Below are positions 1-54,201 of a stretch of 54,201 nt of DNA, one piece after another. Numbering within the stretch: the first letter of the stretch is position 1; every line of letters starts with the position of its first letter. Below the pieces are notes generated by a model, which saw only the letters and a list, made by a program, of their open reading frames with translations, had not been told where the DNA came from and ran no database searches. Location: the IMG/VR virus record IMGVR_UViG_3300049442_000069, one strand, 5' to 3'. Source of the DNA: a virus. Both the position numbers and the translations under genes were made by a program.

Positions 1-127
1 AAAACGACTGCGGCCTGCCAGCTCTTTGCTGGAAAAAAGCCTGCGCTTCTTTGAATCGCCTCATTTCCGAGTCGTCTCTCAGGTTGACGAATTGCTCCCA
101 TTCCCTGGGAGAAAGCGGAGGGCCGGA
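1..127. repeat. Left copy of an exact 127-bp terminal direct repeat (overlap of a circular or circularly permuted genome)
   Basis: Bases 1-127 (aaaacgactgcggcctgcc...gagggccgga) are identical to 54075-54201. The repeat lies inside a coding frame. Confidence 0.95.
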
Positions 128-3100
128 AGCATTTTCAAACTTGGTGTGCTTCTGCTGTAATTTCCGATACATCGCCTCATCGTGTTCGGCCTTAGTGATG
201 TCACCATTATCCAGTGAGCCTTTCAGTCCGGCGTCACTCATGGTTGATAGCTCCTGCATCCGGGTTTCGGGATCTACAACCAGCGGTATTTCGCGTGCGG
301 TTTTCGGCGGAGTAACCTTGTGCGCGGTGAGTTGATCTCGATCCGGTTTCTTAATCCCGATGCCTTGCTTCTCCAGGTATGCGGCACGATCCCTGAGAAC
401 CTGTTCCACCTCGGGCGGGACCAGTGGCATGGCGTTGATCTTTGCGATCGCTGCATCGGCCTGGGCCTGGCTGTAGGTCTTCGGACCAACATCTTTCTGC
501 CAGCCGTCGATCATTCTTTTGCGGCTCGCCAGTGCTTCTTCCTTGAATTGCTGCGCCAGCTTGTAGGCCTTGTTGAAATCGCCCATCGCCTTGGCGTTTA
601 TCATCTCCCTCAGTGGAGACACCGGAGGAGGCGCGGCTTTGCCGCCAGCTCTTGGCGGAACGAATGGAATTATGTCGCCGCCAGCGGTCTGGCTACCCTG
701 TTGCTGCGGCTGTTGCTGCGGGATGGACGAAAGATGCTTTGCGATCCCTGGGACCGGCGGTTGCGGAGGAGGTTTAGGCTTCTGGAACTCCAGCCCCCCC
801 GGGGGAATTGGAACTTCCCGCTCCGGCCTTGTCGGTTCTGCGGATTTTTGCGTCCAGTCCAGCTTGGTGCTTCTGCTGCTCGGATCGAATGTAGTCCCGC
901 TCGACTGCGCTTGGCTCCCAGGTGTCCCATCCTTCTCCCCAGACTCCAGATCCGCTTCGTGGGGTTTCATCCCCTTCATCAACTTCAGCTCCTCGTCGAT
1001 CTGGTGAATCTCCGCTTCGCTGACTTTCCATTCCGGCAATTTACCCGTCTGTCGGAAATGTCCAATCTCATCCTGAATGGTGAGGCCGATGGCGGTCGCG
1101 TCTCCTTCAGCCAGATCAATACGATAGCCTTTGGTTTCCCCGGGGATAGGCGCACGCACATCGCCTCCCACAAACACGCCTGGCATTTTCGTTCTACGGC
1201 TTCCGTCACCAAGGGTTTCCACGAACCCTCCCTTTTTCCCCACCTTAACCAAAGTGATACCCTTCGGGAGCCATGCCGTGTTATTCTCACCGCCCAGGAA
1301 ATTCTCAACGTGGGCAACTTTGAAGGTGTAGTCAGCCCTGGGGTTATCCTCGGAAGGACCGACATGAACTGTTCTGCTTCCATCGGGATTTGCGGTAACA
1401 TGATCTATGGTCCCGGTTACCAGTTCGACATTGCCTTTGCTGACATGATCCAGAATGCGTCGATCCTGATTGATGCTGGCCTCCGGGCCGAATTTGTGCC
1501 GGGTAACCACGGTCACTTTTTTGGTTCCCAGGTCCAATGACCCTAGGACAGCCTGCGTCACGGCATTGCTGCCGCCATACACCATGCCTTCTTTTCCGTT
1601 GGTCAGATTCTTGAACCGCTCAGTGCTTGCCCAGCCGGTATATTGAGACCCGGGGTAAGGTCTGATTGCTGGTTTTGTCCCAGGAAAAAGGGCCACCCTG
1701 CTTGCGGGAATGGTCTTTATGTTTACGAGAGCATTACCCCTTCTCTCACCGGTAATAACATGAACACTGCCATCCGGTTGGTCGATGATGTTTACGACTT
1801 CCGTGTTGGTCCGGATTTCCGCGCCACCATTTCTGGCGGTCTCGATTTTTGCGTTAAAGTAGTCTCGTCCTGTTGAACCCCGCGCTCCCCTTCCGACATT
1901 AAACAGCTCCAGGGATTCCTTTGCAGCACCACCAGCCCTGGCTCCAGCCTCTATGCCAAGAACCCTGAGTCCCTCGTAAGGAAGATGACCGAGCATCTTA
2001 GATCCGGCTGCTCCAATCCCGACTACAACAACATCGTAATTTTGCCCGGACTTCTCCCAGAGTTTGTGCTGCTCCCTGAAATTATCCCATAGAGCCTGCT
2101 GCTTATCGCCCCAGTCCTGCCTTTCCTCCCTGGTTATTCTCCTGGATTCAGACAGTTTCTCGTAGCGAAGCACCGCATTCTGCAAACCGGCTGCGTCATC
2201 CTCCAGTTGATGGAGTTGAACCTGTTCTTCAGGTTGAAGTTTGGTAGGCTCGGTTGTTTTAATTATCTTACCCGAGGCGTCCCTGCCTTCCCGCCGTTCA
2301 CCGGACAGGAGGCGTCCCAGCTCATGCGTTTTTTCCACCGGGATAGGAAGCGGGTCTTCACCACGGGCAATCCGCGCGGTGTTCTCTATTCTAAGGTCGT
2401 GCAGTTCGTCATCGAGCTGTTTGGCGCGAAGTTGCTCCGGGGTTGATGGTCCTCCTTCGGCCTTGGCCTTGTCCTCGATCGCCTTAACCAGAGCGTCTCT
2501 TTCCTGGGTCTTTAGGATCGACGGTCTTTCTCCGCGTTTGTAGATGTCGGAGATTTCCTTCTGGAGTGCCTTGAGACGGACAACATCCGTGTCGGCTTCC
2601 TTGGCTTGCTGCGGTGCGCCCTTGGCTGCTTCCTCTGCCACCTTCTTCGCTATTTTGTAAATACGATCGTCGTGAGTCAGTTGGTATTCCTGGCTTACCG
2701 CATTGGGGTCACCTTCCGGCCTGACCAGAACACCTCCGGGAACTTTCGTCATTGGCCGGTCAACAACATAGCGTCCCCCATGTGGTGCTTCAATGATGTC
2801 TCCCGGCTGCAACTGGGATGCCGCATATTCAACCTGCTGCCTGCGTTCAGTTATCGCCCTTTCGCGTTCTGGACCGATTTTGGTCTGATTGAAAATATCC
2901 TCATCCGTTGGGAATGTGATCGGAGCAGGCTCATGCCTTGGAGCAGTCCCCATGTTCTGGTCCAGTATTCTCTGCTGCTCCTCCGGGGTTTTGGCGGCAT
3001 ACATTTCCCCGATGCGTTTCTCTACGCCACCCTTGGACGATGCAGGCAGTGGCGGTAAAGCGTCAGGAGGCAGATCTCCAGCGATCTGCTTGTTGAGGTG

Positions 3101-4198
3101 ATCTATCTCTGCCTGCCGCTCCTGAATCCTTTCAGGCGGCATGTCCGGGACGTTTTTCAGCAGATCAATTTCATGCTGTGCTTCCTTAACTCGTCTTTCC
3201 CATCCGCCTATTTGCCCTGGTGTCGCTTTTGGTGCCTCGGATACCACGGGCGCGGCGTTGGGGACGGGTTCTGTGCGTGGTAGCTGCCCCCCTGCTGCCG
3301 CTCCTTGCGGCGTTCCGACAACATAATCGCTATCGCCTGGGATCGGGATTGAACCATCGGGCCGTGCTTGCTGCCCGAGTGCAGTTCCCCCGCCTTGAAC
3401 TTGTGCATCACCTGGTTGCTTGGCATAAGGTTGGACTCCTGGTATTTCCTGCGTTTGGATTGGCGGCTTCGCCAATGGCTCTGTCCCCGGCCCCGGAATT
3501 GGTGGGCCTGGAATCGGCTCCTGAAATTTTACTTCCCCGACACTGCTCTCAAAATCCGCCGGGTTAAAGATACCGGGAGGAGGCGGAACGGCTCCTGGTT
3601 TTGGAATCCCCGGTCGAGCTACGTCACCCATGGCCTTGAGTCCCGCGAGCTGCGCCAGGTCAAGAACGGTTCCTATGCCAACGTCATATCTTTCCTGGGA
3701 GCCAGCCGGAGTCTGGTCTGCTTCGTGGATCTGTTGGGCACGGTTGATAACCTGCTCCGGGAAATCCATCGACTGTCGCAATGGCGGGAACCACAGGCCC
3801 ATCCATTGCTTTATTCCTTCAGGGGTAGTAGGAGCCTGAGTTGGGATACCAGCGGATCGCGCCCACTGCTCTCCGGTCTGCGGCACCATGTTTGAGATAT
3901 ATTTCCCAACCGCCGAAGCGGTCTTCCCGAATGGCGCGGGGTAGTTACTCCAGTCCACTGGCTTGTATTGTTCCGCCGCGTTCTTCTGAGTGAACGCCAT
4001 ATATCTCTGGAACATCCCCATGGCACCATCGGTGGCGGGAGTGGAAGAAACAGGAGCGGATGGTTGAGGCTGCGCTGTTGCGGCAGGCTTGTTGCCGCCA
4101 GTGACCTGCTCCCAGGATAACGCCCCGGAACTGTCAGGCTGCTGCGGTGGAGGAGAAGACCCTCCTACCACCTCCTCGTATGAAAGACCGTCTGCCAT
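1..4198 (-). CDS. Giant multidomain virion-associated (polyvalent-type / internal) protein, N-terminal 1,399 codons. Continues across the junction into 52339..54201 (1,977 aa in total).
   Basis: Hand translation of the minus strand, with codon first bases at positions = 1 mod 3. The ATG at 4198-4196 lies 2 nt after the TAA (4203-4201) of the upstream gene, and there is no stop codon down to base 1. Base 64, which equals the Met of track ORF 52339..54138 via the repeat, is in the same frame. The ORF is absent from the track because it has no stop inside the left edge. N-terminus: MADGLSYEEVVGGSSPPPQQPDSS. Confidence 0.85.
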   Translation of the reverse strand, partial: MADGLSYEEVVGGSSPPPQQPDSSGALSWEQVTGGNKPAATAQPQPSAPVSSTPATDGAMGMFQRYMAFTQKNAAEQYKPVDWSNYPAPFGKTASAVGKYISNMVPQTGEQWARSAGIPTQAPTTPEGIKQWMGLWFPPLRQSMDFPEQVINRAQQIHEADQTPAGSQERYDVGIGTVLDLAQLAGLKAMGDVARPGIPKPGAVPPPPGIFNPADFESSVGEVKFQEPIPGPPIPGPGTEPLAKPPIQTQEIPGVQPYAKQPGDAQVQGGGTALGQQARPDGSIPIPGDSDYVVGTPQGAAAGGQLPRTEPVPNAAPVVSEAPKATPGQIGGWERRVKEAQHEIDLLKNVPDMPPERIQERQAEIDHLNKQIAGDLPPDALPPLPASSKGGVEKRIGEMYAAKTPEEQQRILDQNMGTAPRHEPAPITFPTDEDIFNQTKIGPERERAITERRQQVEYAASQLQPGDIIEAPHGGRYVVDRPMTKVPGGVLVRPEGDPNAVSQEYQLTHDDRIYKIAKKVAEEAAKGAPQQAKEADTDVVRLKALQKEISDIYKRGERPSILKTQERDALVKAIEDKAKAEGGPSTPEQLRAKQLDDELHDLRIENTARIARGEDPLPIPVEKTHELGRLLSGERREGRDASGKIIKTTEPTKLQPEEQVQLHQLEDDAAGLQNAVLRYEKLSESRRITREERQDWGDKQQALWDNFREQHKLWEKSGQNYDVVVVGIGAAGSKMLGHLPYEGLRVLGIEAGARAGGAAKESLELFNVGRGARGSTGRDYFNAKIETARNGGAEIRTNTEVVNIIDQPDGSVHVITGERRGNALVNIKTIPASRVALFPGTKPAIRPYPGSQYTGWASTERFKNLTNGKEGMVYGGSNAVTQAVLGSLDLGTKKVTVVTRHKFGPEASINQDRRILDHVSKGNVELVTGTIDHVTANPDGSRTVHVGPSEDNPRADYTFKVAHVENFLGGENNTAWLPKGITLVKVGKKGGFVETLGDGSRRTKMPGVFVGGDVRAPIPGETKGYRIDLAEGDATAIGLTIQDEIGHFRQTGKLPEWKVSEAEIHQIDEELKLMKGMKPHEADLESGEKDGTPGSQAQSSGTTFDPSSRSTKLDWTQKSAEPTRPEREVPIPPGGLEFQKPKPPPQPPVPGIAKHLSSIPQQQPQQQGSQTAGGDIIPFVPPRAGGKAAPPPVSPLREMINAKAMGDFNKAYKLAQQFKEEALASRKRMIDGWQKDVGPKTYSQAQADAAIAKINAMPLVPPEVEQVLRDRAAYLEKQGIGIKKPDRDQLTAHKVTPPKTAREIPLVVDPETRMQELSTMSDAGLKGSLDNGDITKAEHDEAMYRKLQQKHTKFENASGPPLSPREWEQFVNLRDDSEMRRFKEAQAFFQQRAGRPQSF
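1049..2044 (-). other. FAD/NAD(P)-binding pyridine-nucleotide oxidoreductase domain (thioredoxin-reductase-like, no CxxC) inside the giant ORF
   Basis: Hand-translated motifs, in order: NYDVVVVGIGAAGSKMLG (GxGxxG), VLGIEAGARAGG, MVYGGSNAVTQAVLGSLDLGTKKVTVVTR (second dinucleotide-binding motif) and TKMPGVFVGGDV (GD motif). This is the order seen in two-Rossmann TrxR-type flavoproteins. There is no cysteine in the domain. Confidence 0.7.
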
Positions 4199-4200
4199 TT

Positions 4201-5181
4201 TTACGGTGGGACAAATTGTGTTCCCGTCCAGCGCAGATCACCCTGGTCCGTTTGATAAACCACACCGGCCTGCATCTGCTGCTTCGTCGTTGGCAGCGGT
4301 TGCGTTTGGTAGGTTCCCTTATCCACCGATGGCAGGGACGATACTCTGTCCTGGATTTGCTGGTATCTCCTGGCCTGATCGGTCAGCCATTGCGAGGAAA
4401 TTATTCGCGGCTTCCCAACGGGCTTGCCGTTCACATACTGCTGGATTTGCTTCATCCCCGTGGATGGTGCTTCCGGCTTGGGGTAACCAGGCACTCCCAG
4501 TCTCTGTTGCCAGGTCAGACCTGCCTTCTGCTCGTCTGTCAGTTCCCCGGGAACATCCGGGTATAATTCCGGATGCAGCACAGGGTTGGTGTCAGTGTTC
4601 TGAATGTTGCCCCAAAGCTGGCTGCTAACACCATGCTGCCAGGCCTTGGTGTCGGACTCGATTCCTCTCCTGGCATTGATAACAGCGTTCTGTTGCAGCC
4701 GCGCCTTGTTATTCCTGGCCTGAGTGTAGAACGAAGGCGGAGCATACTGGTAATCAGGGTTTCCGAGGATGTTGTCGATCTTCGACATGTAATCAGGGTC
4801 GAGTGGATTCGCGTCGAGGCTGGCGAAGTCCCTGGAAATTCCAGAAACGCTGTCCTGCATCTTTTTTCTGTCACCCACTTTTTCATCGAAGATGTCCTGC
4901 TTTAACTGGAGCGCACCTTCCCTCAAGCCCACGCCTTGCTGCATCCCATAAAGCTTCATCTCGTTCAGCTTGTCCTTCATCGCGCTGTCTGCTTCGATCT
5001 GGGCGTTCTTCTGCTGCAACGCCTGCATTTTGCCTTCAAACTCCTGCTGCTTCAGCTTGAGTCCGGTGGACAAAGCCCATGCATTAAGGAACGTCTCCGC
5101 CGGATTCCCGAGGGCGATGTTCTTGTAGGGGATCTGATTGGCGTCAGCCTGTGCTGCTGTTAGTCCTGATGCGTCTGCCAT
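4201..5181 (-). CDS. Hypothetical virion protein (candidate internal/ejection protein), cysteine-free, Q-rich
   Basis: Track ORF of 326 aa. It is tightly packed between minus-strand structural genes and is followed 2 nt later by the giant ORF start. No recognisable motif. Confidence 0.7.
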   Translation of the reverse strand: MADASGLTAAQADANQIPYKNIALGNPAETFLNAWALSTGLKLKQQEFEGKMQALQQKNAQIEADSAMKDKLNEMKLYGMQQGVGLREGALQLKQDIFDEKVGDRKKMQDSVSGISRDFASLDANPLDPDYMSKIDNILGNPDYQYAPPSFYTQARNNKARLQQNAVINARRGIESDTKAWQHGVSSQLWGNIQNTDTNPVLHPELYPDVPGELTDEQKAGLTWQQRLGVPGYPKPEAPSTGMKQIQQYVNGKPVGKPRIISSQWLTDQARRYQQIQDRVSSLPSVDKGTYQTQPLPTTKQQMQAGVVYQTDQGDLRWTGTQFVPP

Positions 5182-5186
5182 AATGT

Positions 5187-6113
5187 TTATCCTTGGTTGA
5201 AGTGCAGGTTGCCTCCGAGGAGATTAGAGAACGACCCTATCAGGCCCGGGTATTGCGATGAAGGATTAACTGCCGGGCCGTAACCACCAGCGGGAATCGC
5301 TGCGGGATAACCGCTCTCTCCATAGACAGGCCGTGATGCTCCAGCGGCTGCGTAGTTCGCGCTGAGTGCGCCCATGTCGGAACCCGAGGGACCGCCCTGC
5401 GCTGAAGAAGCGAAGTAGTTTGGCGCGACTCCGCCGCCACCACCGCCTTTCCCTGCACCAAGGTAGGCACCAATCAGATTGATGATGGTGTCACTGATTC
5501 CTTTTGCCACGGGGTTGGGAGCAGCTCTTTGGTTTTCCGCGCGTTGCTCAGTCTGCTGCCTGTAAAGATTGTTCTGCATGGTCATGGCAGCCTGCTCCTG
5601 TGGCGAGATAAAGAACGACGCAGGATTCATGTTCAACTGACTGGCCATCGACGCCCATGTCTGTGCAGCGTTCTGCCCGGCCTGACCGGTTGCTATTCCC
5701 TTGTTAATCATGTCCAGGGATGTGAGACCGAGATTCCTCGCCTGGTTCGCGGTCCCCATCGCGCCACCCCACAAACCGGAACCGAGATTCTGGAACGCAG
5801 TGCTTCTGGTAACCTGGTCAACGACATCCTGCGGGATTTGTCCGGCCAGCTCCTCGGCGGAAAGGCTCTGCAACGTCTTGGTGAGATCGCCGCCACGCGC
5901 GAGAATATCGCTAAACCCGGGGATGGAGCGGTTCATCATCCCCAGCATGTAATCGTAATACTCGCCACCCAGAGACTTGATCCACGGCATTGCCGCCAGA
6001 TCTTCCTTGAGAGCCTTTATCTGCTCATCACCAAGGTTGGTTGGAGTGTAGGGAATGATGTCCGGGGTTGATCCGAACACCTCTGAAAGAACCGGTATGT
6101 TGTCTGATGGCAT
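5187..6113 (-). CDS. Hypothetical virion protein with a Gly-rich C-terminal half (GKGGGGGG), cysteine-free
   Basis: Track ORF of 308 aa, with 5-nt and 3-nt gaps to its neighbours in the same operon. Confidence 0.7.
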   Translation of the reverse strand: MPSDNIPVLSEVFGSTPDIIPYTPTNLGDEQIKALKEDLAAMPWIKSLGGEYYDYMLGMMNRSIPGFSDILARGGDLTKTLQSLSAEELAGQIPQDVVDQVTRSTAFQNLGSGLWGGAMGTANQARNLGLTSLDMINKGIATGQAGQNAAQTWASMASQLNMNPASFFISPQEQAAMTMQNNLYRQQTEQRAENQRAAPNPVAKGISDTIINLIGAYLGAGKGGGGGGVAPNYFASSAQGGPSGSDMGALSANYAAAGASRPVYGESGYPAAIPAGGYGPAVNPSSQYPGLIGSFSNLLGGNLHFNQG

Positions 6114-8672: not shown

Positions 8673-10327
8673 TATTCGACGATCTCCCTTAGCCACATGT
8701 CGCCATCATACACCTCGTTCTCCGTGAAAGGAGTCGATTCCTGAGAGGCCTGAAAGTCGAGCGTCCTGGACACGAATTCCCACGGGATTCTTTCATTAAC
8801 GAAATCGTCCTTGTCGTCCTTTGAAATTTCGTAAAGCTGGTTTTGCTCATTCTCATCCAGTCCAAAACAAAATGCCCGGGTCTTCCCGTCGAACGTGCCG
8901 GTAAGTAGCTGGAGTGGGCGAAACCGATCGCATTTCCACTGGCCTTCCCACGCTGGCTTTGCGGTCTGCGGGGCTTGTGGGCTTCCGGCAAAGGAACTGA
9001 TGACGTCAAAGTCCACCGACACTACCCCGGTGTGATACGGCCTGCCGTTGTTCCACGCGGGAGATGTGGTGAAAATGATCCGGTTGTCGAAGTAGATCGA
9101 GGAGGCGTATTTCAGGAGGAAGTCACTGTCGTTCTCCAGGAATTGCCTCACGTTGGTCGAGAGCGGAACGTGCGCCCATCCGCTGGGTTCGCTTCGGGCC
9201 TGGCGATATGAGCGCACGCCATCGTCACTCCGAAACCAGAGATCTTCATTCACCACTGAGATGCTGCGGTGGCCGCGCATGCCCGTGGTTAAAAGGGACA
9301 GCACCTGGAACGCGCTGGTCTTCCACTGCTCGCGCGGAATGGACAGGAAGAAGCTGGCCGAGCCTCGCTCCGCAAACGCCATAAGCTGGCCGTTGCCCGT
9401 TGAGGTGTCCAACTGGGCGAAAAATGACAGTCCTGTTACTTTTCCCTGCTGGAAGGGAATCGCCGCGTCAAAGCCTTCCGCCAGGAAGTTCCGCTCCGTG
9501 AAAAGGACCAGAGAATCCGCTGGATCAGACAGATCGTGGCTGCCATAAAGATCACCAAAAGCGATGTCTCGGTCATTGACGACCACAACCAGGCGACCCA
9601 TACCGTAGGCCATAATTGTGCCAACCGGGATTTCAGTCTGCTCCGCTGTTCCCGTGGTCTTGGCTCTCCTGGCTTTATTGGAGTCATAAATGATCGCTCC
9701 GCCGGTTCCGTCCTGCGCGATCAGAAATTTGTCAGCCTGGCACATGTAGGCAATCTTCCGGTTCCTCATGTTGCGAACACTTCTGGGGTCGTCTTCGATC
9801 TTGATCTCGATCGCCTTCGCTGTCTTTATCCCCGGGGTGATCTTGAACAGGCGTCCACCGATCATCGCCATGATGCAATCGTCTCCGTTGTGAGGCGAGT
9901 AGCATTGGGCGCACTGGAAAATTCCATTCCTGTAAACGTAGTCTGAGTTTTCGTTATTCAGGTTCGCTGGCACAAAGAAGTAAGGCGGGTCCGGCAAAGG
10001 AACAGCAGGGACGCCTTCCTTGTCAGGATCGGCGTATTCGCCTTCAATCCTGTCCACGAACTGGGAATGGAACCTGGTGTTGTAACACCAAAGCTGCCTG
10101 TCAGTGTGAATAGTCCTGTCCGGGAAGTTGGGATGGTCCACCATTGGAGGAAACGACTCATCTATTCTACGGAACCCCGGGCGAGTGGTAATGCTCCCGC
10201 CACGGAAAGTCATATTGATCGCGCTCTGGACCTGGTTTGGATCGAGCAGGTTCGGCTGACGACCGGCGTCCACGCCGCCTTCCAGCGTGCGCCATCCGTC
10301 AAAAATCCTGTTTTTATCAACGATCAT
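8672..10327 (-). CDS. Hypothetical large tail protein (candidate tail tubular/nozzle-type protein)
   Basis: Track ORF of 551 aa with an ATGA overlap to the upstream gene. The call rests on position in the tail module. No specific motif recognised. Confidence 0.6.
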   Translation of the reverse strand: MIVDKNRIFDGWRTLEGGVDAGRQPNLLDPNQVQSAINMTFRGGSITTRPGFRRIDESFPPMVDHPNFPDRTIHTDRQLWCYNTRFHSQFVDRIEGEYADPDKEGVPAVPLPDPPYFFVPANLNNENSDYVYRNGIFQCAQCYSPHNGDDCIMAMIGGRLFKITPGIKTAKAIEIKIEDDPRSVRNMRNRKIAYMCQADKFLIAQDGTGGAIIYDSNKARRAKTTGTAEQTEIPVGTIMAYGMGRLVVVVNDRDIAFGDLYGSHDLSDPADSLVLFTERNFLAEGFDAAIPFQQGKVTGLSFFAQLDTSTGNGQLMAFAERGSASFFLSIPREQWKTSAFQVLSLLTTGMRGHRSISVVNEDLWFRSDDGVRSYRQARSEPSGWAHVPLSTNVRQFLENDSDFLLKYASSIYFDNRIIFTTSPAWNNGRPYHTGVVSVDFDVISSFAGSPQAPQTAKPAWEGQWKCDRFRPLQLLTGTFDGKTRAFCFGLDENEQNQLYEISKDDKDDFVNERIPWEFVSRTLDFQASQESTPFTENEVYDGDMWLREIVE

Positions 10328-12231
10328 TTCGGAGAGTATTTTCCACTTGTTGCGTGCATCATTTGCGAAGTCGGCACGGCGGCTGCCGGTTGCTCGCTGC
10401 CGCCACGAAATCTATCCACGATTGACTGGTAAAAACCTGGTTCATTTACCAACCTGTTATGAAAATCAACCTGCCCTCCATGGTAAGCGTTCCAGTTCCA
10501 GCCCGGATTCATTGTGCTTCCAAGCGGCTGGCTGGCCCAGGGACTCGGCATGGCGTGTTTCATCAGTCCAAAGTTCTGTGGCGTGGTGTAAATACCCTTA
10601 CGCATCTGGGTTAGCCAATGCAGTGCTTCGCCGTTTCCCCTGCCCCATAGTGCGGCGGCACTCGTCGGCCCATACATAGGAGGACCACCACCTCCCTGCG
10701 GTGCTGGAACACTGGAACTTCCAACCTGTCCGACCCCAAAGGGATTCGTCGGTGAGTTGATGTCAGGATTAAAGTTAGTCTGAGAACCAAAGAAGCCGCC
10801 CCTTCCACTGGGGTCACTGCCCAGTCGCTCAAGGCCGCTCTGAGTGTTGGGGCCGGTCTGGACAGGACCAAACGCGCCTTCGGCGGCCAGCTTGCCCATG
10901 TCTCCCCCGGTGTCAGCGTTCCAATATGGTCCACCGGGAACATTGGTGTTGTATCCGCTCGGTGTAACACCAGCCAGTCTTTGCGCGAATGTCTTGGCAG
11001 CATCACCGGCAGCGGCAACAATCTTTCCAGCACCATCAATGATGTTGCCAGCCGTGTCAGTAAAGAACTGGCCTACGCCTCCACCGCCAGGGAATTGCGT
11101 CATGTTAAAGGCGTTGGCGTTGCCTTCTGGCGAAACTGCTGTTCCGGGAATGACGTTGCCATTTGCATCTAGCATTCCTTGAGTTGGAGGAGCGTAATTA
11201 AACCCGGGCGCGTTGGGCAACAATCCGGGGTCAGCACCACCAACCGGATTTGGTCCGGATGGGCTGTAGTAACCTGTCGGCGGAGTCCCGGCAGCACCTC
11301 CGGCGAATCCACCACCTCCGCCCGAAGTGTCGTCCGGTGGAGCAACTGCTCCTCCTCCTGGGAATTGGTCAACAAAGAATGGCCACTGGAAATCACCTCC
11401 TGTCGTGTCGGCCCCGGTCGCCACAGTGGAAGGCTGCTGGTAGCCGGACATGTCGGGAAGGTTGTCGAAATCTCCAAGGTCAGTCGGAGGTGCCATTCCG
11501 GTCCCGGCACTTAGATTACCACTCCAGTCCGGAGTAGGGGGCGGCGGGAACAATTCATTATAGATCCCGGCGTAGGGATTGTCCGGGGGATTCGGAGCGT
11601 TGGCGTTCAGATGCACCGTGTCAGTGCCAAACGGGTTCTCCGGAATGCCTGAAGGCTGCCCAAAGGGATCGACCGGCAGATCCATGAATGGCGGATAAAC
11701 TCCAGGAGGCACATCCATGCCCTCATGTGGCATTCCGCCGACCGGAATTGGTGTTGGCTCGATGCTGGGATCGCCAAACTGCATACCAGGACGACTGTCG
11801 GGAGGCAGTGCTTGCAGTCCGGCAGGATTACCGAGATCTCCTTCCCTGATGGCGCGTTGAGTCATCCGCGTGAACAAATCAGTGTCCATGGCGTGATACT
11901 CCATCTGTAACGCCGTGTTTGATCCCGGCCCTTCATAATTCACCGGGGTTGTAGCTGGCTGCGCTGGCTCATTCGGAAAGGTTGGAACCTGTCCGGTGCC
12001 GACAGGAAAAGGCCTGGCTGACGGGAAGGAAGGATCATCCAGCCAGACATTCGGGTCAGTGCTGGCGCGGAAAATGTTCGGATTCGGAGACAGTTGATTC
12101 GGAGACAGCGGTTGCCCGGAGATAAAAGGATCAACGCCCTGACGGAACTGGGGATAACTTCCAGCCGAAGGCGATGACGATCCACCTCCGCCGTAGAGCT
12201 GCATCAGGTATTGAAACTGTTGATCGGTCAT
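10324..12231 (-). CDS. Pro/Gly-rich low-complexity virion protein, cysteine-free
   Basis: Track ORF 10324..12249 has a TTG start. The ATG at 12231 (MTDQQFQYL) makes an ATGA overlap with the upstream stop. Long PG-rich tracts. Confidence 0.6.
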   Translation of the reverse strand: MTDQQFQYLMQLYGGGGSSSPSAGSYPQFRQGVDPFISGQPLSPNQLSPNPNIFRASTDPNVWLDDPSFPSARPFPVGTGQVPTFPNEPAQPATTPVNYEGPGSNTALQMEYHAMDTDLFTRMTQRAIREGDLGNPAGLQALPPDSRPGMQFGDPSIEPTPIPVGGMPHEGMDVPPGVYPPFMDLPVDPFGQPSGIPENPFGTDTVHLNANAPNPPDNPYAGIYNELFPPPPTPDWSGNLSAGTGMAPPTDLGDFDNLPDMSGYQQPSTVATGADTTGGDFQWPFFVDQFPGGGAVAPPDDTSGGGGGFAGGAAGTPPTGYYSPSGPNPVGGADPGLLPNAPGFNYAPPTQGMLDANGNVIPGTAVSPEGNANAFNMTQFPGGGGVGQFFTDTAGNIIDGAGKIVAAAGDAAKTFAQRLAGVTPSGYNTNVPGGPYWNADTGGDMGKLAAEGAFGPVQTGPNTQSGLERLGSDPSGRGGFFGSQTNFNPDINSPTNPFGVGQVGSSSVPAPQGGGGPPMYGPTSAAALWGRGNGEALHWLTQMRKGIYTTPQNFGLMKHAMPSPWASQPLGSTMNPGWNWNAYHGGQVDFHNRLVNEPGFYQSIVDRFRGGSEQPAAAVPTSQMMHATSGKYSPK

Positions 12232-13568
12232 GGGAGTTCGTAAGCGCAAACCGACACCGCGCCAATGTTGGCAGTTCCGATTCCTCCATTGGTGGCAAGC
12301 TGGACATCAATCCAGATTGGGACACCCAACGACAAGCCTCCGATAACGAAACTCATCGAGAATGGAACAAGCGCGTTGGCTGCCAGCCTTGTGCATCCAG
12401 CGTAACCTCCGATTGGCGCACTGCCAGCCGGTGGATTGTCGCCATTGTGAGGAGCTGCCCCGGTGCCGATTCTGATCTGGGCGATCGCGCTGCCTGCGGC
12501 GTTGTTATTCCACATCCAGCCGTGAATGGTGGCAGTGACTTTGCCGCTGGTGAGAAGCGTTATCACCGCGTTAAGGCCCATCATCTTAAAAGCTGCGGAT
12601 GTCGTTCCTGTAACCGTGTCCTGCTTGACGGTCTGGACGGCGGCGTAATTAGGAACGGTGATTCCGGGAACGGCGACCCATTTGGTATCGTAATCGTCTG
12701 GGGAATTCTTGACCAAAACATCAGAGGTTGCGCCTCCTGCCGGAACCCCGGGGCCGGGAGGACCAGGATCTCCACCCGCGCCGATGACCGCAAAGAGAAT
12801 CCATGACTTTGGATCTCCATTGGCAGCTTGCGGTGAGACCTGAACCCAACTCGTCCCTCCGTTGGCGTTGCCTTCCCGCACTGTGCAGTAGGCGCGGTTC
12901 ACCTCATCGAAGGTGTCCATGTCCGGGGCAACCGTCCATGGACCAGTCTGGGCGATCCAGATCGTGTTCTCGGATTCCCTTCCCGGGGCTTGATCCTTGA
13001 GTAGAATTCTGTCACCAGCCCTTGGAGTCACTCCGTCGATGGGATGCAGTCCCACTCGGGAAGCGTTAGTCGTGCTGGCCAGCCTGACTGCTGTCTTGGG
13101 ATTGAGTCCTTGGAGCAGCATGTCCATGAACGACTTGGTGACCGCATCCTGCGCGTTGATCGGGTTGGCTAGGTTGATGATTCTCTTGCTGGCCAGATTG
13201 ACGTCTGCCCCAGGCTGCCGGATCTGATCGAGTTTCGCCAGATACGTCCCGGAGATGATTCCTCCCTGCCACGTTCCTACAGCAATCGTTCCCAGTTCGG
13301 TGATGTGACGCTGCTGTCCATTCACACCAGCAGTGAGCTGTCCGGCCAGATCCACAAAGCCAGGCTGCTTCACGGTCCATACATGCGTGGGATTGTCCCA
13401 GCCTTGCAGCCACTGGTTGCCCGGGGGATGAATGGTTGGAGGTGCGCCCAGCTCCTGAAGGTTGGATGTGTCGAGGTTCAGCAGCTTGTGGTGCTGCATG
13501 TCCACATCGTTCTGCGCCAGCGCGTGCCACAGCAAACTGTGTCCGGTTCCTGCTACTTCGATTGCCAT
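12228..13568 (-). CDS. Tail fibre protein (cassette 2, gene B) with the shared C-terminal ...E(L/I)P module
   Basis: Track ORF of 446 aa. Its C-terminal ~125 aa align by eye with the C-termini of 14659..15246 and 17597..19060 (SGKV..., RIGTGAAP / RWGTGSAP / RWGTGSKP, ending YELP / TEIP / AEIP). Confidence 0.7.
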   Translation of the reverse strand: MAIEVAGTGHSLLWHALAQNDVDMQHHKLLNLDTSNLQELGAPPTIHPPGNQWLQGWDNPTHVWTVKQPGFVDLAGQLTAGVNGQQRHITELGTIAVGTWQGGIISGTYLAKLDQIRQPGADVNLASKRIINLANPINAQDAVTKSFMDMLLQGLNPKTAVRLASTTNASRVGLHPIDGVTPRAGDRILLKDQAPGRESENTIWIAQTGPWTVAPDMDTFDEVNRAYCTVREGNANGGTSWVQVSPQAANGDPKSWILFAVIGAGGDPGPPGPGVPAGGATSDVLVKNSPDDYDTKWVAVPGITVPNYAAVQTVKQDTVTGTTSAAFKMMGLNAVITLLTSGKVTATIHGWMWNNNAAGSAIAQIRIGTGAAPHNGDNPPAGSAPIGGYAGCTRLAANALVPFSMSFVIGGLSLGVPIWIDVQLATNGGIGTANIGAVSVCAYELP

Positions 13569-17368: not shown

Positions 17369-17600
17369 TTCTCTCTTTAACAACTTCCCAGGTTCGGAGG
17401 CCAGACAATCCGAACACCAGCACGGCCAGGGCACGTTGAAATTCGTAGAGGTATTTGAACTCGTTCTGCGGCAGGGCTTCTTTCAGCCAGCCCGGATAAG
17501 CCAAAGCAAAAAGCTGAATCACCATGATGAGAATTGGCATGAACAGGAACATCAGCACCGCTCCCCAGTTGAGAAAATGTTTCCATGGTTCTTCCTTCAT
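17319..17600 (-). CDS. Two-TM membrane protein (holin-like), 93 aa
   Basis: In-frame ATG at 17600 within track ORF 17319..17738 ([35 protein letters not shown]...[12 protein letters not shown]). It forms an ATGA overlap with the stop of the collagen-like gene. Confidence 0.55.
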
Positions 17601-19060
17601 GGTATTTCCGCAGCGCACATGGCGACGGAACTCAGCTTCCCTATTCCGCTTCCACCAGCATTGCCGTATCCCGCGCTGAACCAGTAACGAGTTCCGACCA
17701 CTAATCCGGTGACGATGGCAACCAGTCCTATCGGGCAAGGCAAATTAGCGATGGCAGAACCCGACAAAGCAAGTCCACCCGCAACGGTTCCGGCGACCGA
17801 CGATCCCGGATTAGGTTTACTTCCTGTTCCCCACCGGAGCTGCGCTGATGCGCCCTGGTTCACCGAGTTGTTACTCATGTAACCAGACAAGCTGAACATG
17901 ACCTTTCCACTGAAACTCGGAGTGAGGTAGTCGCCCAATCCGGTCATTACTTCGCCCTGGGTTGTTCCGGCCAGTGTTGACTGTGCGGTCTGGAAAAAAG
18001 CGAATGTTCCAGTCGGTCCTACTTCGCCCTGAATTCCCTGCGCTCCCTGAAGTCCCTGCGGCCCCGCTGGGCCTGCTGGTCCCTGGATTCCCTGTGCGCC
18101 GGTTGCTCCGGTCGCTCCAGTGTTTCCTTTTGCTCCGGTCGCTCCTGCTGGTCCGGTTGGTCCTGTCGGGCCAGTTGGCCCGGGGATGCCCTGAATTCCC
18201 TGAGATCCTGCTGTTCCCTGGTCTCCTTTTGCTCCTTGGGGACCAGTCAGTCCCGTGGCTCCGGTTTGTCCTACTAAACCGGGATCTCCCTTCACGCCCT
18301 GTGGACCTGTGGCTCCAGCCGGGCCTTGTGCGCCTGTCGCGCCGGGAGTGCCGGGTGCGCCTGCCGGTCCCTGGATCGGGCCAACATCACTCCATTGCCC
18401 GGGCAAACCCCAAACCCAGCCGTGGCTCGTATCCAGAGTGATCCACAAATCTCCCGGAGTTGCCGAGGCCGGGAGGCTGGCGTGCGTTGCAACCGATCCC
18501 TTGATGACGACACTCGTTCCGTCAGCTCCCTTCGGACCTGTCGGGCCTGCCGCGCCTTGAATTCCCTGTGGACCTGGTGCGCCCTGTGCGCCCTGGGTTC
18601 CAGTTGCTCCTGTTGCCCCGGGGTTACCTTGTGGCCCCTGAGATCCGACATCTCCTTTGTTTCCTTGCGGCCCCTGCGCTCCGGTTGCTCCCGGCGCACC
18701 GGCAGCTCCTGTTGCGCCAGTTGCTCCAGTGGCTCCAGGAGGACCAGTTGGGCCGGGGATAGTTGAATCTGCTCCGGCGGCTCCCGGCGGCCCTTGTGGT
18801 CCCGTGGCTCCGGGAACACCCTGCGGTCCCTGCGCTCCAGTCGCTCCCTGCGGCCCGGTTCCTGGCGGTCCTTGTGGACCCGTTGGGCCAGTTGGACCTG
18901 CTGGACCTTCCGGTCCTACAGCGGCTGGAATCTGAATCTGGACAGGCGAACCATCGCCAGCGTCGAATACCTGAACACCACCGAATGGTGGTGTCAGCGG
19001 CTCAATCACCTCGACCTGAAGGAGAGATGGAGCTGTTTGTAAATCGTCCAGTGTAGTCAC
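17597..19060 (-). CDS. Collagen-like (G-X-Y repeat) tail fibre with the shared C-terminal module (C1q/BclA-like architecture)
   Basis: Track ORF of 487 aa. Two long G-X-Y blocks ([19 protein letters not shown]... and [19 protein letters not shown]...) are separated by a non-collagen insert ([21 protein letters not shown]). The C-terminal ~120 aa are homologous to the other two fibre C-termini. Confidence 0.85.
18020..18919 (-). repeat. Nucleotide-level triplet-periodic repeats encoding the two G-X-Y blocks
   Basis: Runs of GGN-CCN/ACN/GCN codons. They generate many spurious overlapping ORFs on both strands in the track (17962..18935). Confidence 0.8.
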
Positions 19061-50246: not shown

Positions 50247-50726
50247 TTACCCCGCAGGTTCAAGCTTGTAAGTCTTCCCGTCAACAACGGCGGGAACGTC
50301 CGGCCATAGCTCGTAGAGATAGATTCGATTAGTATCCCCGGAGTTGTGGGTTGTCTTCGGGTTGAGTATCTGCGACAGGCAGTAGGCAGTTTCGCCTGTC
50401 TTGTCGTCGGGACCGATCTCTCCAATCACACCCATGCTCATCACGCCGGTCAGCAGATTGGTGGCGCGGCCCTGGCAGCCCATAACCACTCCAGGCACCA
50501 TCGCCCTGATCTGAGGCGGAATAACGATGTATTTATCCACATCGGCGTTGAGAAATTTTCCCCCGTTGTAGTAAGCTGTCTGCGACTGGTGAAACTGGTC
50601 GTCGTAGTCGGGGCCGCTTCCGTCATTGCAAACATCAAGGTCGCTCCGGAACCAGAGGTAACGGCCACAGGCAAATTCGTAGATGGTGACTGGTGGGATG
50701 ATGAGCAGTTCATTGAAGTGGTCCAT
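50247..50726 (-). CDS. GH75-like (chitosanase-family) glycoside hydrolase: candidate lysin or depolymerase
   Basis: Track ORF of 159 aa. The motif order is LDVCNDGSGPDYDD, QSQTAY, LNADVDKYIVIP, VIGEIGPDDKTGE. This matches the order in fungal GH75 enzymes (DIDCDG...QSQT...LNA..PYVV...GD...GE). Confidence 0.55.
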   Translation of the reverse strand: MDHFNELLIIPPVTIYEFACGRYLWFRSDLDVCNDGSGPDYDDQFHQSQTAYYNGGKFLNADVDKYIVIPPQIRAMVPGVVMGCQGRATNLLTGVMSMGVIGEIGPDDKTGETAYCLSQILNPKTTHNSGDTNRIYLYELWPDVPAVVDGKTYKLEPAG

Positions 50727-50731
50727 GGTGT

Positions 50732-52339
50732 TTATCCTGAGTAAACGGGACGTTTCCCTTTCCCGCGTGAACCTTTCGGTTCGGTGCTTGGCTTGTAGTA
50801 ATGCGCTCCGAGCATTGCTGGAATCATAACAAAGACAGCATTCCTGAGTGACCTTAGCACCTTGGCGTTGAACTCCTCTGGAACCCCGGTCTGATCGGCC
50901 ATGCTCTTGGAGAATTCATGGATGCCTTCCTCTGTGAAGATTGGGCCGAGTTCAGCGGTAACAAACTCCGCCCAGTGATAGAAGTCATTGGGTGCGTTCC
51001 CGAATGGAGCCGGAACATCGGTGCCTCCAAAGCCATAACCTTTCATCATTGTGCCCACGAAGTTGATGAACGGATGCACTTTCCCCAGGGCATAGTTTCC
51101 AAAGATGGTGGGAGCCTGCTTTGGATTCATTGCCATTCTCACCACGGTTCGGATCATCGACGTCTCGCCGCCGGTAGGATTGAGGATGCTTCCGTCCGGT
51201 GCTTTGATAGATGCCCAGTCCGGGGAATCGAAATCACCCACGTTCACGTTCTCGTCGCTGCCAAAGAAGTGCTTGAGCAACATCTGATTCAATAACAGGA
51301 TGGAACTTCCCACTGCGGCTATGCGAATCCACTGCCGGACATTGTAACCCGCGATGTAACGCGCCTCCGGGCTGGCATCCGACCACACCTTTCTGAGTGT
51401 GTCGCCAATCACGGGCAACTTATTCAGGTTATGTCGGGCCAGGATCTGAGATGACTGAAGCAGATCGACAGGCCGCATCACACGCGCGACATCCAGGGAG
51501 GGAGCGAACTCAATACCCCGGGCAGCCTTGCCGAATTTTCCAGAGAGAGCCAGTGCCGCAGAAGGACCAGGCGCACCAGTCATGTGATTCACATAAGTTG
51601 ACGCCCTTTTCCGCAGCTCATCCGTCTTCAGATGCTCCGGTGCGCCATCCATGACAGCATCCCAGCCGAAACCCCGGAGTTCTTTCAGCCCCAGGAAGCT
51701 GTGACTGAGCATTCGTCCTATCTTCCCGAAGAATCCTGCCCGGTGCTGAACGTCATCGTAGATCTTGCGCGGATCGGCAGCCAGACCGCTGGTGATTTTC
51801 TCGTCAAACCTGGGGTCGAGCATGATGCGCTGACCAATGGCGCGAGCCTGGGATTCACTCATCGACTTGATGGAGTCCACCCATGTCTTCCCGAAGCCCT
51901 TCCACATCACAGGGTCGAAAGCATACGGCCATGCGTGAGTGCCGTGCAGTGCCGTGGAGTGACCGAAGACCTTGAGGGAATACGGAGCCTGGTAAGCACC
52001 AGTGAAGAATCTGTTGAGTGGCGACTTCTCGGTGCCTGCCACGAAATCCCTGGCCTGACGCAGCATCTGCTGCCTGTTGCGGTCAGCCAGTAGAAGGTTT
52101 TTACTCCGGGGTTTCACCGCCTTTGGTGTCGCCAGCACCTTTGCCACCTCCTCCGGGACCATGCGAACCCCGGTCCTTTTGTAGATGTCATCCGAAAGCC
52201 TGGTGGTTAGCTCCTTGAAATCCGGGTAGCCATATCTTCCCGGCTGCTTCAGGTATTTCTCCTTGGCGTAATCCCAGAGTTCCTTGGCATCCCTGATGGT
52301 ATAACAAGGCGAGACTGAGATGCTTGGGACGGTAGGCAT
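50732..52339 (-). CDS. Hypothetical large virion protein (candidate internal protein)
   Basis: Track ORF of 535 aa. Its ATG overlaps the TAA of the giant ORF (TAATG). Confidence 0.65.
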   Translation of the reverse strand: MPTVPSISVSPCYTIRDAKELWDYAKEKYLKQPGRYGYPDFKELTTRLSDDIYKRTGVRMVPEEVAKVLATPKAVKPRSKNLLLADRNRQQMLRQARDFVAGTEKSPLNRFFTGAYQAPYSLKVFGHSTALHGTHAWPYAFDPVMWKGFGKTWVDSIKSMSESQARAIGQRIMLDPRFDEKITSGLAADPRKIYDDVQHRAGFFGKIGRMLSHSFLGLKELRGFGWDAVMDGAPEHLKTDELRKRASTYVNHMTGAPGPSAALALSGKFGKAARGIEFAPSLDVARVMRPVDLLQSSQILARHNLNKLPVIGDTLRKVWSDASPEARYIAGYNVRQWIRIAAVGSSILLLNQMLLKHFFGSDENVNVGDFDSPDWASIKAPDGSILNPTGGETSMIRTVVRMAMNPKQAPTIFGNYALGKVHPFINFVGTMMKGYGFGGTDVPAPFGNAPNDFYHWAEFVTAELGPIFTEEGIHEFSKSMADQTGVPEEFNAKVLRSLRNAVFVMIPAMLGAHYYKPSTEPKGSRGKGKRPVYSG

Positions 52340-54201
52340 TAGCAGGGCTTTCTCTTTTTGCTGATTCCCTTGGTGGCAGTGTCGATGGTGGCCGGACCCT
52401 TGCGGTCAGTCTTAATCCTGCCCAGCTCATTGTCGATCGAATTATACAGCTCGGCGGTATCCTTCATGTATTGCGACTGGGCCTTGGTGGTCTTATCGGC
52501 AATCTGCCTGGCTTCAGCTTCTTCAGGCACCATTGATTCCCGGCCTCTTATCTCCCTGAATCGACGCATAAGCCCGGTGAAGGATGACGCCGTGCGCGGG
52601 TCAATGGGTGCAGATCCATCGAGAGTCTTCAGGGTGTCCCGGGCCACGGCATCCATGGGACGATAAGCATTGGTGAAATCCTCCTCTGCTCTCTGAGCTG
52701 CGTTGAATTTCCTTTCCAGATCCGCATCATGCGGGTGCTTCATCAGCGCATCACCGGCCTCATTAGTGGCTGCCTGTAGGTCGTCCAGATGTGCCCGGGC
52801 CTTCCCCATGTCAGCGGCAGTCACCTTCCCGGTCTTGTGAAAATTATCGACCACACCCTTGATGTCGCCTCCTGCGGCCAGCCATTCCCTGCCTTGGGTC
52901 AGGGATTCGTGCCACCCGATTGGTGGACGTCGCGGCTCAGTTTCCACGGTGGGAACCGGCTCTTTGGCAGCAACAGCTCTGGTGGTTGGCGACAGAGCCT
53001 CGACCATACGCGAAGGAGTCATGTCTCCTTTGAGGATCATGTCGCGCATCTGAGGGTCCATGTCCCAATGCTTTGCACGATCCGCCAGGCTGCGGAGTTC
53101 AGCCAGCTTATGGGCTACATCGGCCTGATTTTCGACATTGACTCCTAATGCCCGGGCTTTTTCCGGGTGCCGTGCCGCGCCAGCCACGGAACTGATGTGC
53201 TGGTTCAACTCTCTCTGAAGTGCGCTGGCTCTTTTCCCCGCGTCGGCCATGGCTTGCATGGCTGTGTCATCGGATGACAGCAGATCGAGCTGATGTGAGT
53301 GCGGATGACCGCCCAGATTAGCCCGGACACCCCGGATCAAATTGCCGACTGACTGGCCGCTTTCTCCACCAAGGGCGGCCTTTATCCCAACGCGCTGAAG
53401 CCCTTCATTGCCTGGGGCTGCTTCTGCGATCGCTTGAGCCTGCGCGTCGGATATGCGGCCAGACTGGTGTAGTCCAAAGAGCGATTCGCCGCTTCCTCGC
53501 GCGATTGAGAATCCGGCTTTGCCAGTTCCCCGCGCCAGAAGTCCTCTGGACTCGGCTGCTTGCTGCGTGATCCCTGAATTCCTGAAGTAGTTTGCATAAT
53601 CTGCTACGCTCCCCTGGTTGTCTCTGATGTTTAGTTCCGCGTCAAGCCGCGCTGCCTGCCGCGCGTCGAATCCGTTCACCTCGCGGTGGATCTGCGAAGG
53701 GATGGTTTTCTCTCCGGTGCGCTTTGCCAGATCGAACCTGTGCCGTCCGGAAATCAGCTCCAGCTTTCCATTGCGACGCTCCCAGAGCTGCACGGGAGGA
53801 GTTCCAACTCTCTCGTATTTTCCAGCCAGTGGTTCCACCACGCCCTGCTCGTTTGCCCCGGACTTAAACTGGGGCACATCCTTGCTCAAGGAGATCTTGT
53901 TCAGGGGAACCTCTGAGATCGGATAGCCGGTGGCGTGAGTGGCAGTGTCCGGCGGAGCTGGAAGTGCCAGCCGTGGTTTCAGTTTAATGAACTCGCCCTC
54001 GATGTCCGGGGGATTAAGATCCCTGCCAGGAAAAGGATGACCGCGATTCGCTTCATCGAGCATGTCCGGAACTGAAAACGACTGCGGCCTGCCAGCTCTT
54101 TGCTGGAAAAAAGCCTGCGCTTCTTTGAATCGCCTCATTTCCGAGTCGTCTCTCAGGTTGACGAATTGCTCCCATTCCCTGGGAGAAAGCGGAGGGCCGG
54201 A
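52339..54201 (-). CDS. C-terminal part of the 1,977-aa giant ORF (the last 127 nt duplicate 1-127)
   Basis: Track ORF 52339..54138 (599 aa). The frame stays open above the listed Met up to 54201 and continues at base 4198 downwards on the circle. Confidence 0.85.
   Translation of the reverse strand, partial: SGPPLSPREWEQFVNLRDDSEMRRFKEAQAFFQQRAGRPQSFSVPDMLDEANRGHPFPGRDLNPPDIEGEFIKLKPRLALPAPPDTATHATGYPISEVPLNKISLSKDVPQFKSGANEQGVVEPLAGKYERVGTPPVQLWERRNGKLELISGRHRFDLAKRTGEKTIPSQIHREVNGFDARQAARLDAELNIRDNQGSVADYANYFRNSGITQQAAESRGLLARGTGKAGFSIARGSGESLFGLHQSGRISDAQAQAIAEAAPGNEGLQRVGIKAALGGESGQSVGNLIRGVRANLGGHPHSHQLDLLSSDDTAMQAMADAGKRASALQRELNQHISSVAGAARHPEKARALGVNVENQADVAHKLAELRSLADRAKHWDMDPQMRDMILKGDMTPSRMVEALSPTTRAVAAKEPVPTVETEPRRPPIGWHESLTQGREWLAAGGDIKGVVDNFHKTGKVTAADMGKARAHLDDLQAATNEAGDALMKHPHDADLERKFNAAQRAEEDFTNAYRPMDAVARDTLKTLDGSAPIDPRTASSFTGLMRRFREIRGRESMVPEEAEARQIADKTTKAQSQYMKDTAELYNSIDNELGRIKTDRKGPATIDTATKGISKKRKPC
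53614..53922 (-). other. ParB/sulfiredoxin-like (ParBc) domain inside the giant ORF
   Basis: YPISEVPLNKISLSKDVPQFKSG...PPVQLWERRNGKLELISGRHRFDLAKRTGEKTIPSQIH. This is the ParB N-terminal-domain pattern, with a GxxR/ISGRHR box followed by a helix. Confidence 0.6.
54075..54201. repeat. Right copy of the exact 127-bp terminal direct repeat
   Basis: Identical to 1-127, read directly from the sequence. Unique genome length is therefore 54,074 bp. Confidence 0.95.

Follow-up and report, generated by a model that had tools for sequence, protein, structure and literature searches.

Phage polyvalent proteins that contain ParB-superfamily domains and adjoin virion genes have been described by Iyer, Burroughs, Anand, de Souza & Aravind (2017, J Bacteriol, PMC5512222). 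The same work predicts that these proteins are packaged and injected, citing DdrB of phage P1. DdrB and DarB are large antirestriction proteins that are packaged in the P1 head and delivered with the DNA; LPD38 is specific to polyvalent proteins of the phage type; and a zincin-like metallopeptidase with the motif HExxH is frequent in the class, without being obligatory (PMC5512222). The words thioredoxin, FAD and oxidoreductase never occur in that paper, and cysteine is not mentioned either. Here, we describe a 54,201-nt stretch of viral DNA, IMG/VR record IMGVR_UViG_3300049442_000069 (hereafter the window), whose minus strand encodes a single protein of 1,977 amino acids (aa). It is probably a phage-type polyvalent protein of an uncultured tailed phage, i.e., the product of a late gene in which several globular modules are connected by Pro-rich linkers. 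Such proteins form a known class; a flavoprotein domain, a conserved lone C-terminal cysteine and a class-wide avoidance of cysteine are modestly novel leads.

Like the described phage-type polyvalent proteins, the protein is a giant multidomain product encoded beside the virion genes of a phage with portal and terminase; indeed, genes resembling those of terminase, portal and fibre are found in the window. One module of the protein belongs to the ParB superfamily and is fused elsewhere to ART-PolyVal, RadC, LPD3, LPD38 and HExxH regions, and its modules are shuffled among relatives. Unlike them, it has no metallopeptidase (MPTase)/HExxH, ART or LPD match of its own, and it possesses a flavoprotein domain of thioredoxin reductase (TrxR) fold and a very rare N-terminal module (N-module). 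The comparison with P1 DdrB and DarB is similar. These are also large proteins, DdrB also has a ParB-superfamily domain, and the window protein is likewise proposed to be an effector that enters with the genome; yet it shows no match to the Pfam family DdrB-ParB, no methylase and no helicase.

The giant gene is continuous across the circular junction

Bases 1–127 of the window recur exactly as bases 54075–54201, forming a direct terminal repeat of 127 bp, and the unique circle is 54,074 bp long. On the minus strand, the frame that opens with the ATG at 4198–4196 runs down to base 1 through 1,399 sense codons without a single stop, leaving one nucleotide over. Followed through the repeat, it ends at the stop codon at 52339–52341, and the whole gene comprises 5,934 nt and 1,977 codons for amino acids. 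In the linear record, it is written as a 5′ part (1–4198, minus strand), with codons 1–1399 and the first base of codon 1400, and a 3′ part (52339–54074, minus strand), with the rest of codon 1400, the codons up to 1977 and the stop. The original prediction had proposed exactly such an open reading frame (ORF), and its frame, stop and length were reproduced; re-translation of the rotated sequence gave no in-frame stop before 52339–52341. It is by far the largest gene of the window, as had been claimed, with an 888-aa putative portal as the runner-up. Its absence from the ORF list was confirmed as well. The list holds the 3′ piece alone (52339–54138, 599 aa), starting at an internal Met that corresponds to base 64 of the repeat, and nothing convincing is listed on the minus strand of 1–4198 because the ORF tool omits frames that run off an end of the linear sequence.

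Two other public contigs, both cut elsewhere, carry the junction as a contiguous sequence. In JGI contig Ga0495614_0000017 (54,325 bp), the gene lies uninterrupted in mid-contig, and 25.7 kb of this contig are 100% identical to the rotated window, junction included. Its product, P0001, is a 100% identical protein of 1,911 aa with the JGI/IMG name 'thioredoxin reductase'. The second contig is a strain variant, IMG/VR UViG_3300046461_000068, with 96–98% nucleotide identity; its gene is unbroken, begins with the same ATG and encodes 2,015 aa. The second copy of bases 1–127 (54075–54201) is therefore read as the terminal overlap of an assembly, the genome being circular or circularly permuted, and not as a biological terminal repeat: it lies inside the coding sequence, the other contigs are cut elsewhere, and 127 is a usual largest k-mer length of assemblers.

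Comparison of the window with the strain variant revealed 80 synonymous and 3 non-synonymous differing codons over residues 541–1977. Within at most 600 nt on each side of the junction, there were 15 synonymous and no non-synonymous differences. The frame of the gene is under purifying selection. In addition, the relatives P0002 and P0003 are each a single protein that aligns on both sides of the junction. These observations confirm one genuine gene, seemingly split only by the linear writing-out of a circular assembly. That the gene is hidden, as originally suggested, did not hold as a statement about biology: this status is a bookkeeping effect of linearisation, and IMG already calls the gene, publicly annotated as P0001, though shortened and misnamed.

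The shortening concerns the start codon. The ATG at 4198 lies 2 nt past the TAA of the upstream gene (4201–5181), and none of the 13 sense codons that precede it in frame is an alternative start. The JGI/IMG call begins at Met67, 66 codons late, leaving a gap of 200 nt; elsewhere in the operon, genes begin 2–8 nt past the preceding stop or overlap it. Codons 1–66 (4001–4198) show five synonymous and no non-synonymous differences from the strain variant, i.e., the leader left out by the IMG call is under purifying selection. The leader (residues 1–66) contains two similar motifs, LSYEEVVGG and LSWEQVTGG, which have counterparts in relatives, namely PDFSGIGG/PDFSRIGG in P0002 and three copies of WPGxxV in P0005. 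By spacing, codon differences and counterpart motifs, the predicted start at 4198 is preferable to Met67.

The ParB module points to a probable polyvalent protein

A scan of IMG/VR with an alignment of the ParB module confirmed 157 stretches, and the statistics on giant ORFs given here and below refer to the best 80 loci of these. At 76 of the 80 loci, the module resides in an ORF that reaches or exceeds 1,000 aa (median length, 2,449 aa; maximum, more than 3,800 aa); the 80 giant ORFs span 915–3,891 aa. Among the sampled giants, L007 combines ART-PolyVal with RadC, L024 carries LPD38, and P0004 combines ART-PolyVal with LPD3. In these giants, the module is 31–67% identical to that of the window protein. 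An HExxH motif is found in 53 of the 80 giants, with 0.02 per protein expected by composition; it is present in P0002, P0003 and the relative L008. In the window protein, several unrelated globular modules, i.e., a TrxR fold, a ParB fold and N- and C-terminal modules, are joined in one phage polypeptide, with Pro-rich linkers between them.

The ParB-fold module spans residues 1442–1750 (53023–53949, minus strand) in which a helical domain comes after a ParB N-domain; its motifs are ISGRHRFDLA and AELNIRD. Sequence searches found 24 homologs of it, most of them fragments on short contigs. In an alignment of 20 homologs, G68, H70 and R71 of ISGRHRF are invariant and R69 is nearly so, and in ELNIRD, N107 never varies and R109 and D110 hardly do. 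The Pfam family ParB_N (PF02195) gave weak matches in 12 of 20 close homologs, the best at 6e-4. The Pfam family model DdrB-ParB matched neither the protein nor any of the 20 homologs of the module up to E = 1, a threshold at which the HMMER filters may still drop very weak matches. Searches of PDB sequences with the module, both with the single sequence and with a profile, were not significant, so that structure prediction was needed to recognise the ParB fold.

The AlphaFold2 (AF2) model of the module was confident, with a predicted local distance difference test (pLDDT) score of 89.3 and a predicted TM-score (pTM) of 0.82. In Foldseek, it matched ParB, Noc, KorB, PadC and sulfiredoxin. The ParB/Noc/KorB matches cover about 200 columns, i.e., the N-domain and the next helical domain, at E-values of 4e-6 to 1e-4 and target-normalised TM-scores of at most 0.63. 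In BFVD, which holds predicted viral structures, the top matches include several entries named 'Large polyvalent protein associated domain-containing protein'. In the predicted structure, residues 1442–1650 thus resemble the N-domain and the following helical domain of chromosomal and plasmid ParB/Noc/KorB, the CTP-dependent DNA clamps. The GxRHR arginine motif and an E-x-N-x-R motif stand where ParB has boxes II and III, an assignment that should be considered provisional. The differences are also clear: identity is 14–18%, the module is embedded in a 1,977-aa protein, and no ParA partner accompanies it among the genes examined. Mentions of ParB in PMC13190303 concern a microscopy tool, and this paper was set aside.

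A TrxR-like domain without catalytic cysteines

Residues 721–1050 (1049–2038, minus strand) form an FAD/NAD(P)H domain of the TrxR fold. This domain matches Pfam Pyr_redox_2 at 4e-10, above the gathering score, and PDB thioredoxin reductases at 2e-5 at best. Alignments show that the GxGxxG motif (GIGAAG) and the motifs GGSNAV and GVFVGGDV are kept. These motifs and the fold with two dinucleotide-binding domains are shared with TrxB and with TrxR-like ferredoxin-NADP+ reductases (FNRs). The catalytic site is different: the CATC of Escherichia coli TrxB aligns to ASTE in the window domain, P0002 and P0003 have AITE or AIAE there, and the domain contains no cysteine at all. On TIGR01292, the NCBIfam equivalog for TrxB, it scores 21.8 bits compared with a cut-off of 343.45 bits. 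Because CxxC is gone and the score is far under the equivalog cut-off, the domain cannot be classed as a thioredoxin reductase, and the name given by IMG misleads. TrxR-like FNRs, which are among the Foldseek matches of the domain, lack the redox disulfide, and the domain resembles them in this respect. Nearly all of the 50 best Foldseek matches are low-molecular-weight TrxR, TrxR-like FNR or close relatives, which serves as corroboration only.

The domain is rare in giants: among the 80 related giant ORFs, it is found only in the strain variant L006 and in L008. Its identity to any cellular relative is about 20–28%. In a word-indexed search, the cellular proteins found were receiver-domain fusions only, at 26–27% identity and likewise with A-x-T-E. 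The nearest of them, P0030 and P0031, are fusions to response-regulator receiver domains, 550–577 aa long, with A-x-T-E in place of CxxC. The alignments suggest an uncharacterised cysteine-less TrxR-like family as the source of the phage domain. The sole PHROG match of the giant protein, phrog_6397 'ribonucleotide reductase large subunit' (3e-13), falls on residues 721–1045 (1064–2038, minus strand), and this annotation looks unreliable for a TrxR-like domain. In the literature searched, nothing relevant was found on a thioredoxin reductase that is a virion or internal protein.

Cysteine avoidance

The giant protein contains one cysteine in 1,977 aa, and this is its last residue (…KKRKPC; codon 1977, 52342–52344). 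In P0002, P0003 and L008, there is also a single cysteine, which is the penultimate residue (…REVCG or …KEVCG). This conserved lone C-terminal cysteine hints, from the alignments, at an attachment that is covalent or made by a disulfide. The remaining proteins of the window contain 0.99% Cys, and the chance of finding at most one in 1,977 aa is about 6e-8. The trait extends to the class: in 69 of the 80 giants, there are no more than two cysteines, and the pooled count is 77 in 193,193 residues (0.04%), compared with 0.47% pooled over 349 adjacent ORFs with a minimum length of 200 aa. Four genes that follow one another in the window (308, 326, 1,977 and 535 aa) together encode two cysteines in 3,146 residues. 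The proteins of 326, 308 and 535 aa (4201–6113 and 50732–52339), which found no match in any of the libraries, could be co-delivered with the giant protein.

Proteins that are exported unfolded through narrow channels, such as autotransporter passengers, offer an analogy for cysteine avoidance. By this analogy, the avoidance fits a translocation through the tail and the periplasm, and it may be the reason why a cysteine-less TrxR-like lineage was recruited.

Proposed role and its weighing

If the protein is a packaged polyvalent protein, it would be made together with the virion proteins and built into the particle, probably via its conserved N- and/or C-terminal modules. It would then enter the host along with the DNA, as an extended, cysteine-free chain suited to the tail channel and the oxidising periplasm, and its modules would act early in infection. 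The ParB-fold module might provide nucleotide-dependent DNA binding or nicking. Since the FAD and NAD(P)H motifs are kept and the redox disulfide is missing, the TrxR-fold module would be either an NAD(P)H-dependent flavoenzyme with a non-thioredoxin acceptor or a nucleotide-binding module only. The boldest form of this proposal is an injected, cysteine-free, NAD(P)H-dependent flavoenzyme within a polyvalent effector, with class-wide cysteine scarcity as the signature of threading unfolded through tail channel and periplasm. We advance this form tentatively, as one rather more likely to fail than to hold.

Several observations weigh against assigning the protein to the polyvalent class and against its delivery. 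The Pfam scan of the window protein gave no LPD, ART or MPTase match, and an HExxH motif is found neither in this protein nor in L006; what supports membership of the class is thus one shared module, together with architecture and context. On the window sequence itself, Pfam ParB_N and DdrB-ParB gave no match up to E = 1. For the TrxR-like domain, AF2 produced a poor model (pLDDT 53), built on a five-sequence alignment, and cofactor binding is argued from motifs alone. A flavoprotein with its cofactor bound would not be easy to pass through a narrow channel. Cysteine is scarce in the adjacent virion-module ORFs, too (median, 0% per ORF); the contrast in cysteine content is real, without being exclusive to the giants, and this makes cysteine avoidance less specific as a signature. 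Finally, the support for the predicted packaging and ejection of the giant protein is indirect, namely gene position and cysteine avoidance. With these points included, the assignment to the phage-type polyvalent proteins is still the probable one.

Alternative readings

The alternative that survives best, which we consider unlikely, is in line with the original prediction of an internal or ejected protein of a short-tailed phage: a structural ejectosome or internal-core component, comparable to T7 gp16, that would mainly build a DNA conduit and carry accessory enzymatic domains. Podoviruses have large internal proteins of a size comparable to that of the giant protein. The late place of the gene in the virion operon and the run of four nearly cysteine-free genes (2 Cys in products of 308, 326, 1,977 and 535 aa) agree with such a role. 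Indeed, the predicted location at the distal end of the operon, after the fibre and tail genes, is supported by PHROG matches, the gene being near the end and third from last. The protein also resembles T7 gp14, gp15 and gp16 and the virion RNA polymerase of phage N4 in being a very large product of a virion-module gene that is presumed to be translocated with the DNA.

Neither PHROG, Pfam, NCBIfam nor PDB revealed homology to T7/P22-type internal or ejection proteins (gp14, gp15, gp16 or the ejection proteins of P22). A Pfam scan found no lytic transglycosylase domain in the giant protein, and no transmembrane-like segment was detected at a Kyte-Doolittle mean of at least 1.6; unlike the T7 and N4 proteins, it thus has no detectable transglycosylase, RNA polymerase or membrane segment. 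The short-tailed premise itself found no support either. The putative portal, capsid, tail and terminase proteins gave no PHROG, Pfam or PDB sequence match that would indicate a morphotype; in particular, the putative portal and capsid matched nothing among PDB sequences, and the terminase had three weak tblastn matches only, with 23–28% identity over 21–58% of the query, to a phage contig from a fecal sample and two Curtobacterium phages. Moreover, the partners of the ParB module are effector domains (ART, RadC and GHKL) and not conduit proteins. Of the original reading, the operon position stands, and the short-tailed premise is not supported. A packaged and injected protein is the best reading because of membership in the polyvalent class and cysteine avoidance, and not because of a podovirus gene order.

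Far less probable is an intracellular, non-virion protein that merely lies beside the virion genes, e.g., a fusion of a metabolic redox enzyme with a ParB-type factor for DNA organisation or partition. The ParB fold, the TrxR-like fold and the IMG name thioredoxin reductase would suit this idea. However, the gene is tightly coupled to, and transcribed with, virion genes, since it starts 2 nt past a stop and its own stop overlaps the next start. No ParA-like partner was found among the genes examined, the CxxC is missing, the score lies far below the TrxB equivalog cut-off, and the ParB module nearly always occurs within giant multidomain ORFs of viral contigs. Cysteine avoidance would also be left unexplained.

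Finally, an artefact, in which two unrelated ORFs were fused by false circularisation or misassembly or the frame is open by chance, could appeal to the fact that the join rests on reading the 127-bp terminal repeat as an overlap, but it retains virtually no probability, being already refuted by the join in two contigs cut elsewhere (one of a distinct strain), by the purely synonymous differences around the junction and by the alignment of P0002 and P0003 across both sides.

Other regions of the protein

The N-terminal region (residues 1–200; 3599–4198, minus strand) contains the twin short motifs of the leader followed by the N-module at approximately residues 87–200. The N-module carries the motif TPAGSQERYDxGIGTVLDLxQLA and is common to P0002, P0003 and P0005. 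It is exceptionally rare: 1.84 billion representatives, searched exhaustively with a profile, yielded only 20 proteins that have it, with lengths of 110–2,223 aa, and it is always near the N-terminus (20/20 of the representatives found). A peptidoglycan-hydrolase domain of 3D/MltA-like type was considered for the N-terminus of relatives of the P0005 type; it was unsupported by Pfam or PDB and is not claimed.

A Pro/Gly-rich linker follows at approximately residues 201–330 (3209–3598, minus strand), with 32–45% Pro+Gly per 40-residue block. Residues ~430–520 (2639–2911, minus strand) constitute a variable cassette. In the 96–98% identical strain, they are swapped for an unrelated segment that is 38 aa longer (L006 4772–5243), while the flanks are near-identical; by this strain comparison, the region looks like a cassette exchange inside the giant gene. 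The next region, at approximately residues 520–715, is charged and, as we read its composition, presumably helical. Between the TrxR-like domain and the ParB-fold module, a linker rich in Pro and Gln by composition (residues ~1085–1195; 614–946, minus strand) is followed by an uncharacterised region (residues ~1195–1440).

The C-terminal module (residues 1765–1977; 52342–52980, minus strand) ends in the sole cysteine of the protein. It is 53–60% identical to the C-termini of P0002 and P0003 and is also present in L008, L010 and L071. In P0002, P0003 and L008 (4884–11693), which show approximately 50% identity, a GHKL-type ATPase (HATPase_c) and an HExxH region lie between the ParB and C-terminal modules. 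This cassette is missing from the window protein.

Operon and neighbouring genes

The giant gene is the third from last in a minus-strand virion operon, being followed by genes for 535 and 159 aa. Upstream genes of the operon encode a collagen-like fibre and virion-structural proteins, as judged from PHROG matches, and the gene order is kept in the relative L002 at approximately 50% amino-acid identity; the giant protein of this syntenic relative has the additional cassette of GHKL-type ATPase and HExxH. The two genes directly upstream (4201–6113, minus strand) encode products of 326 and 308 aa that contain no cysteine and match no database entry; both genes are syntenic in the relative. The two downstream genes (50247–52339, minus strand) are the last of the operon; the 535-aa product contains one cysteine, and the ATG of its gene overlaps the stop of the giant gene. 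The 535-aa protein has no transmembrane segment at a Kyte-Doolittle mean of at least 1.6. The idea that it represents a split-off C-terminal region of LPD38 type was rejected at the sensitivity of phmmer and an iterated profile on 39 giants, which gave no match. For the four flanking genes and most virion genes, PHROG, Pfam, NCBIfam and PADLOC scans gave nothing usable.

In the minus-strand operon at 4201–27773, a Shine-Dalgarno (SD)-like motif is absent upstream of every examined gene start. For about half of the starts listed, the preceding gene ends with a TAA that is 2–8 nt from the ATG, and overlaps occur between other pairs of genes. The spacing and the lack of SD motifs suggest coupled translation in a host that uses SD little. 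The collagen-like (Gly-X-Y) tail-fibre gene at 17597–19060 (minus strand) matches phrog_819 at 1.5e-60 and includes a tandem repeat at 18099–18175. From its translation, the C-terminal region of the fibre resembles those of the 195-aa and 446-aa neighbours (…GTGSAP…), which suggests several fibre paralogues in the window. Within the block of tail genes, 10324–12249 (minus strand) encodes a cysteine-free 641-aa protein of extreme Gly/Pro/Asn richness with no database match.

No tRNA gene and no Rfam family above the gathering score were found in the whole window, and the tRNA, Rfam and tandem-repeat scans yielded nothing that bears on the giant gene. Neither a megablast of the 24-kb virion module (4000–28000) nor a tblastn search with the giant protein matched any of 50,697 phage records. 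With no nucleotide match among these deposited phage genomes, the phage belongs to a deeply divergent lineage.

Significance

For annotation, this locus illustrates that ORF callers applied to linearised circular phage contigs can lose or shorten the largest gene. In IMG, the giant gene has a start placed 66 codons late and a misleading name.

Current views of polyvalent proteins are not overturned by these results. Their repertoire gains a flavoprotein module without catalytic cysteines. If the flavoenzyme is indeed injected, it would be the first redox-enzyme module in the class and may alter the pyridine-nucleotide or redox state of the host, or reduce a phage or host substrate, at entry; cysteine scarcity would then be usable to predict injected phage proteins generally. 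Should packaging and injection be confirmed, cysteine avoidance would become a testable criterion, at the sequence level, for injected phage proteins, and the giant protein would add a new candidate for early-acting effector chemistry.

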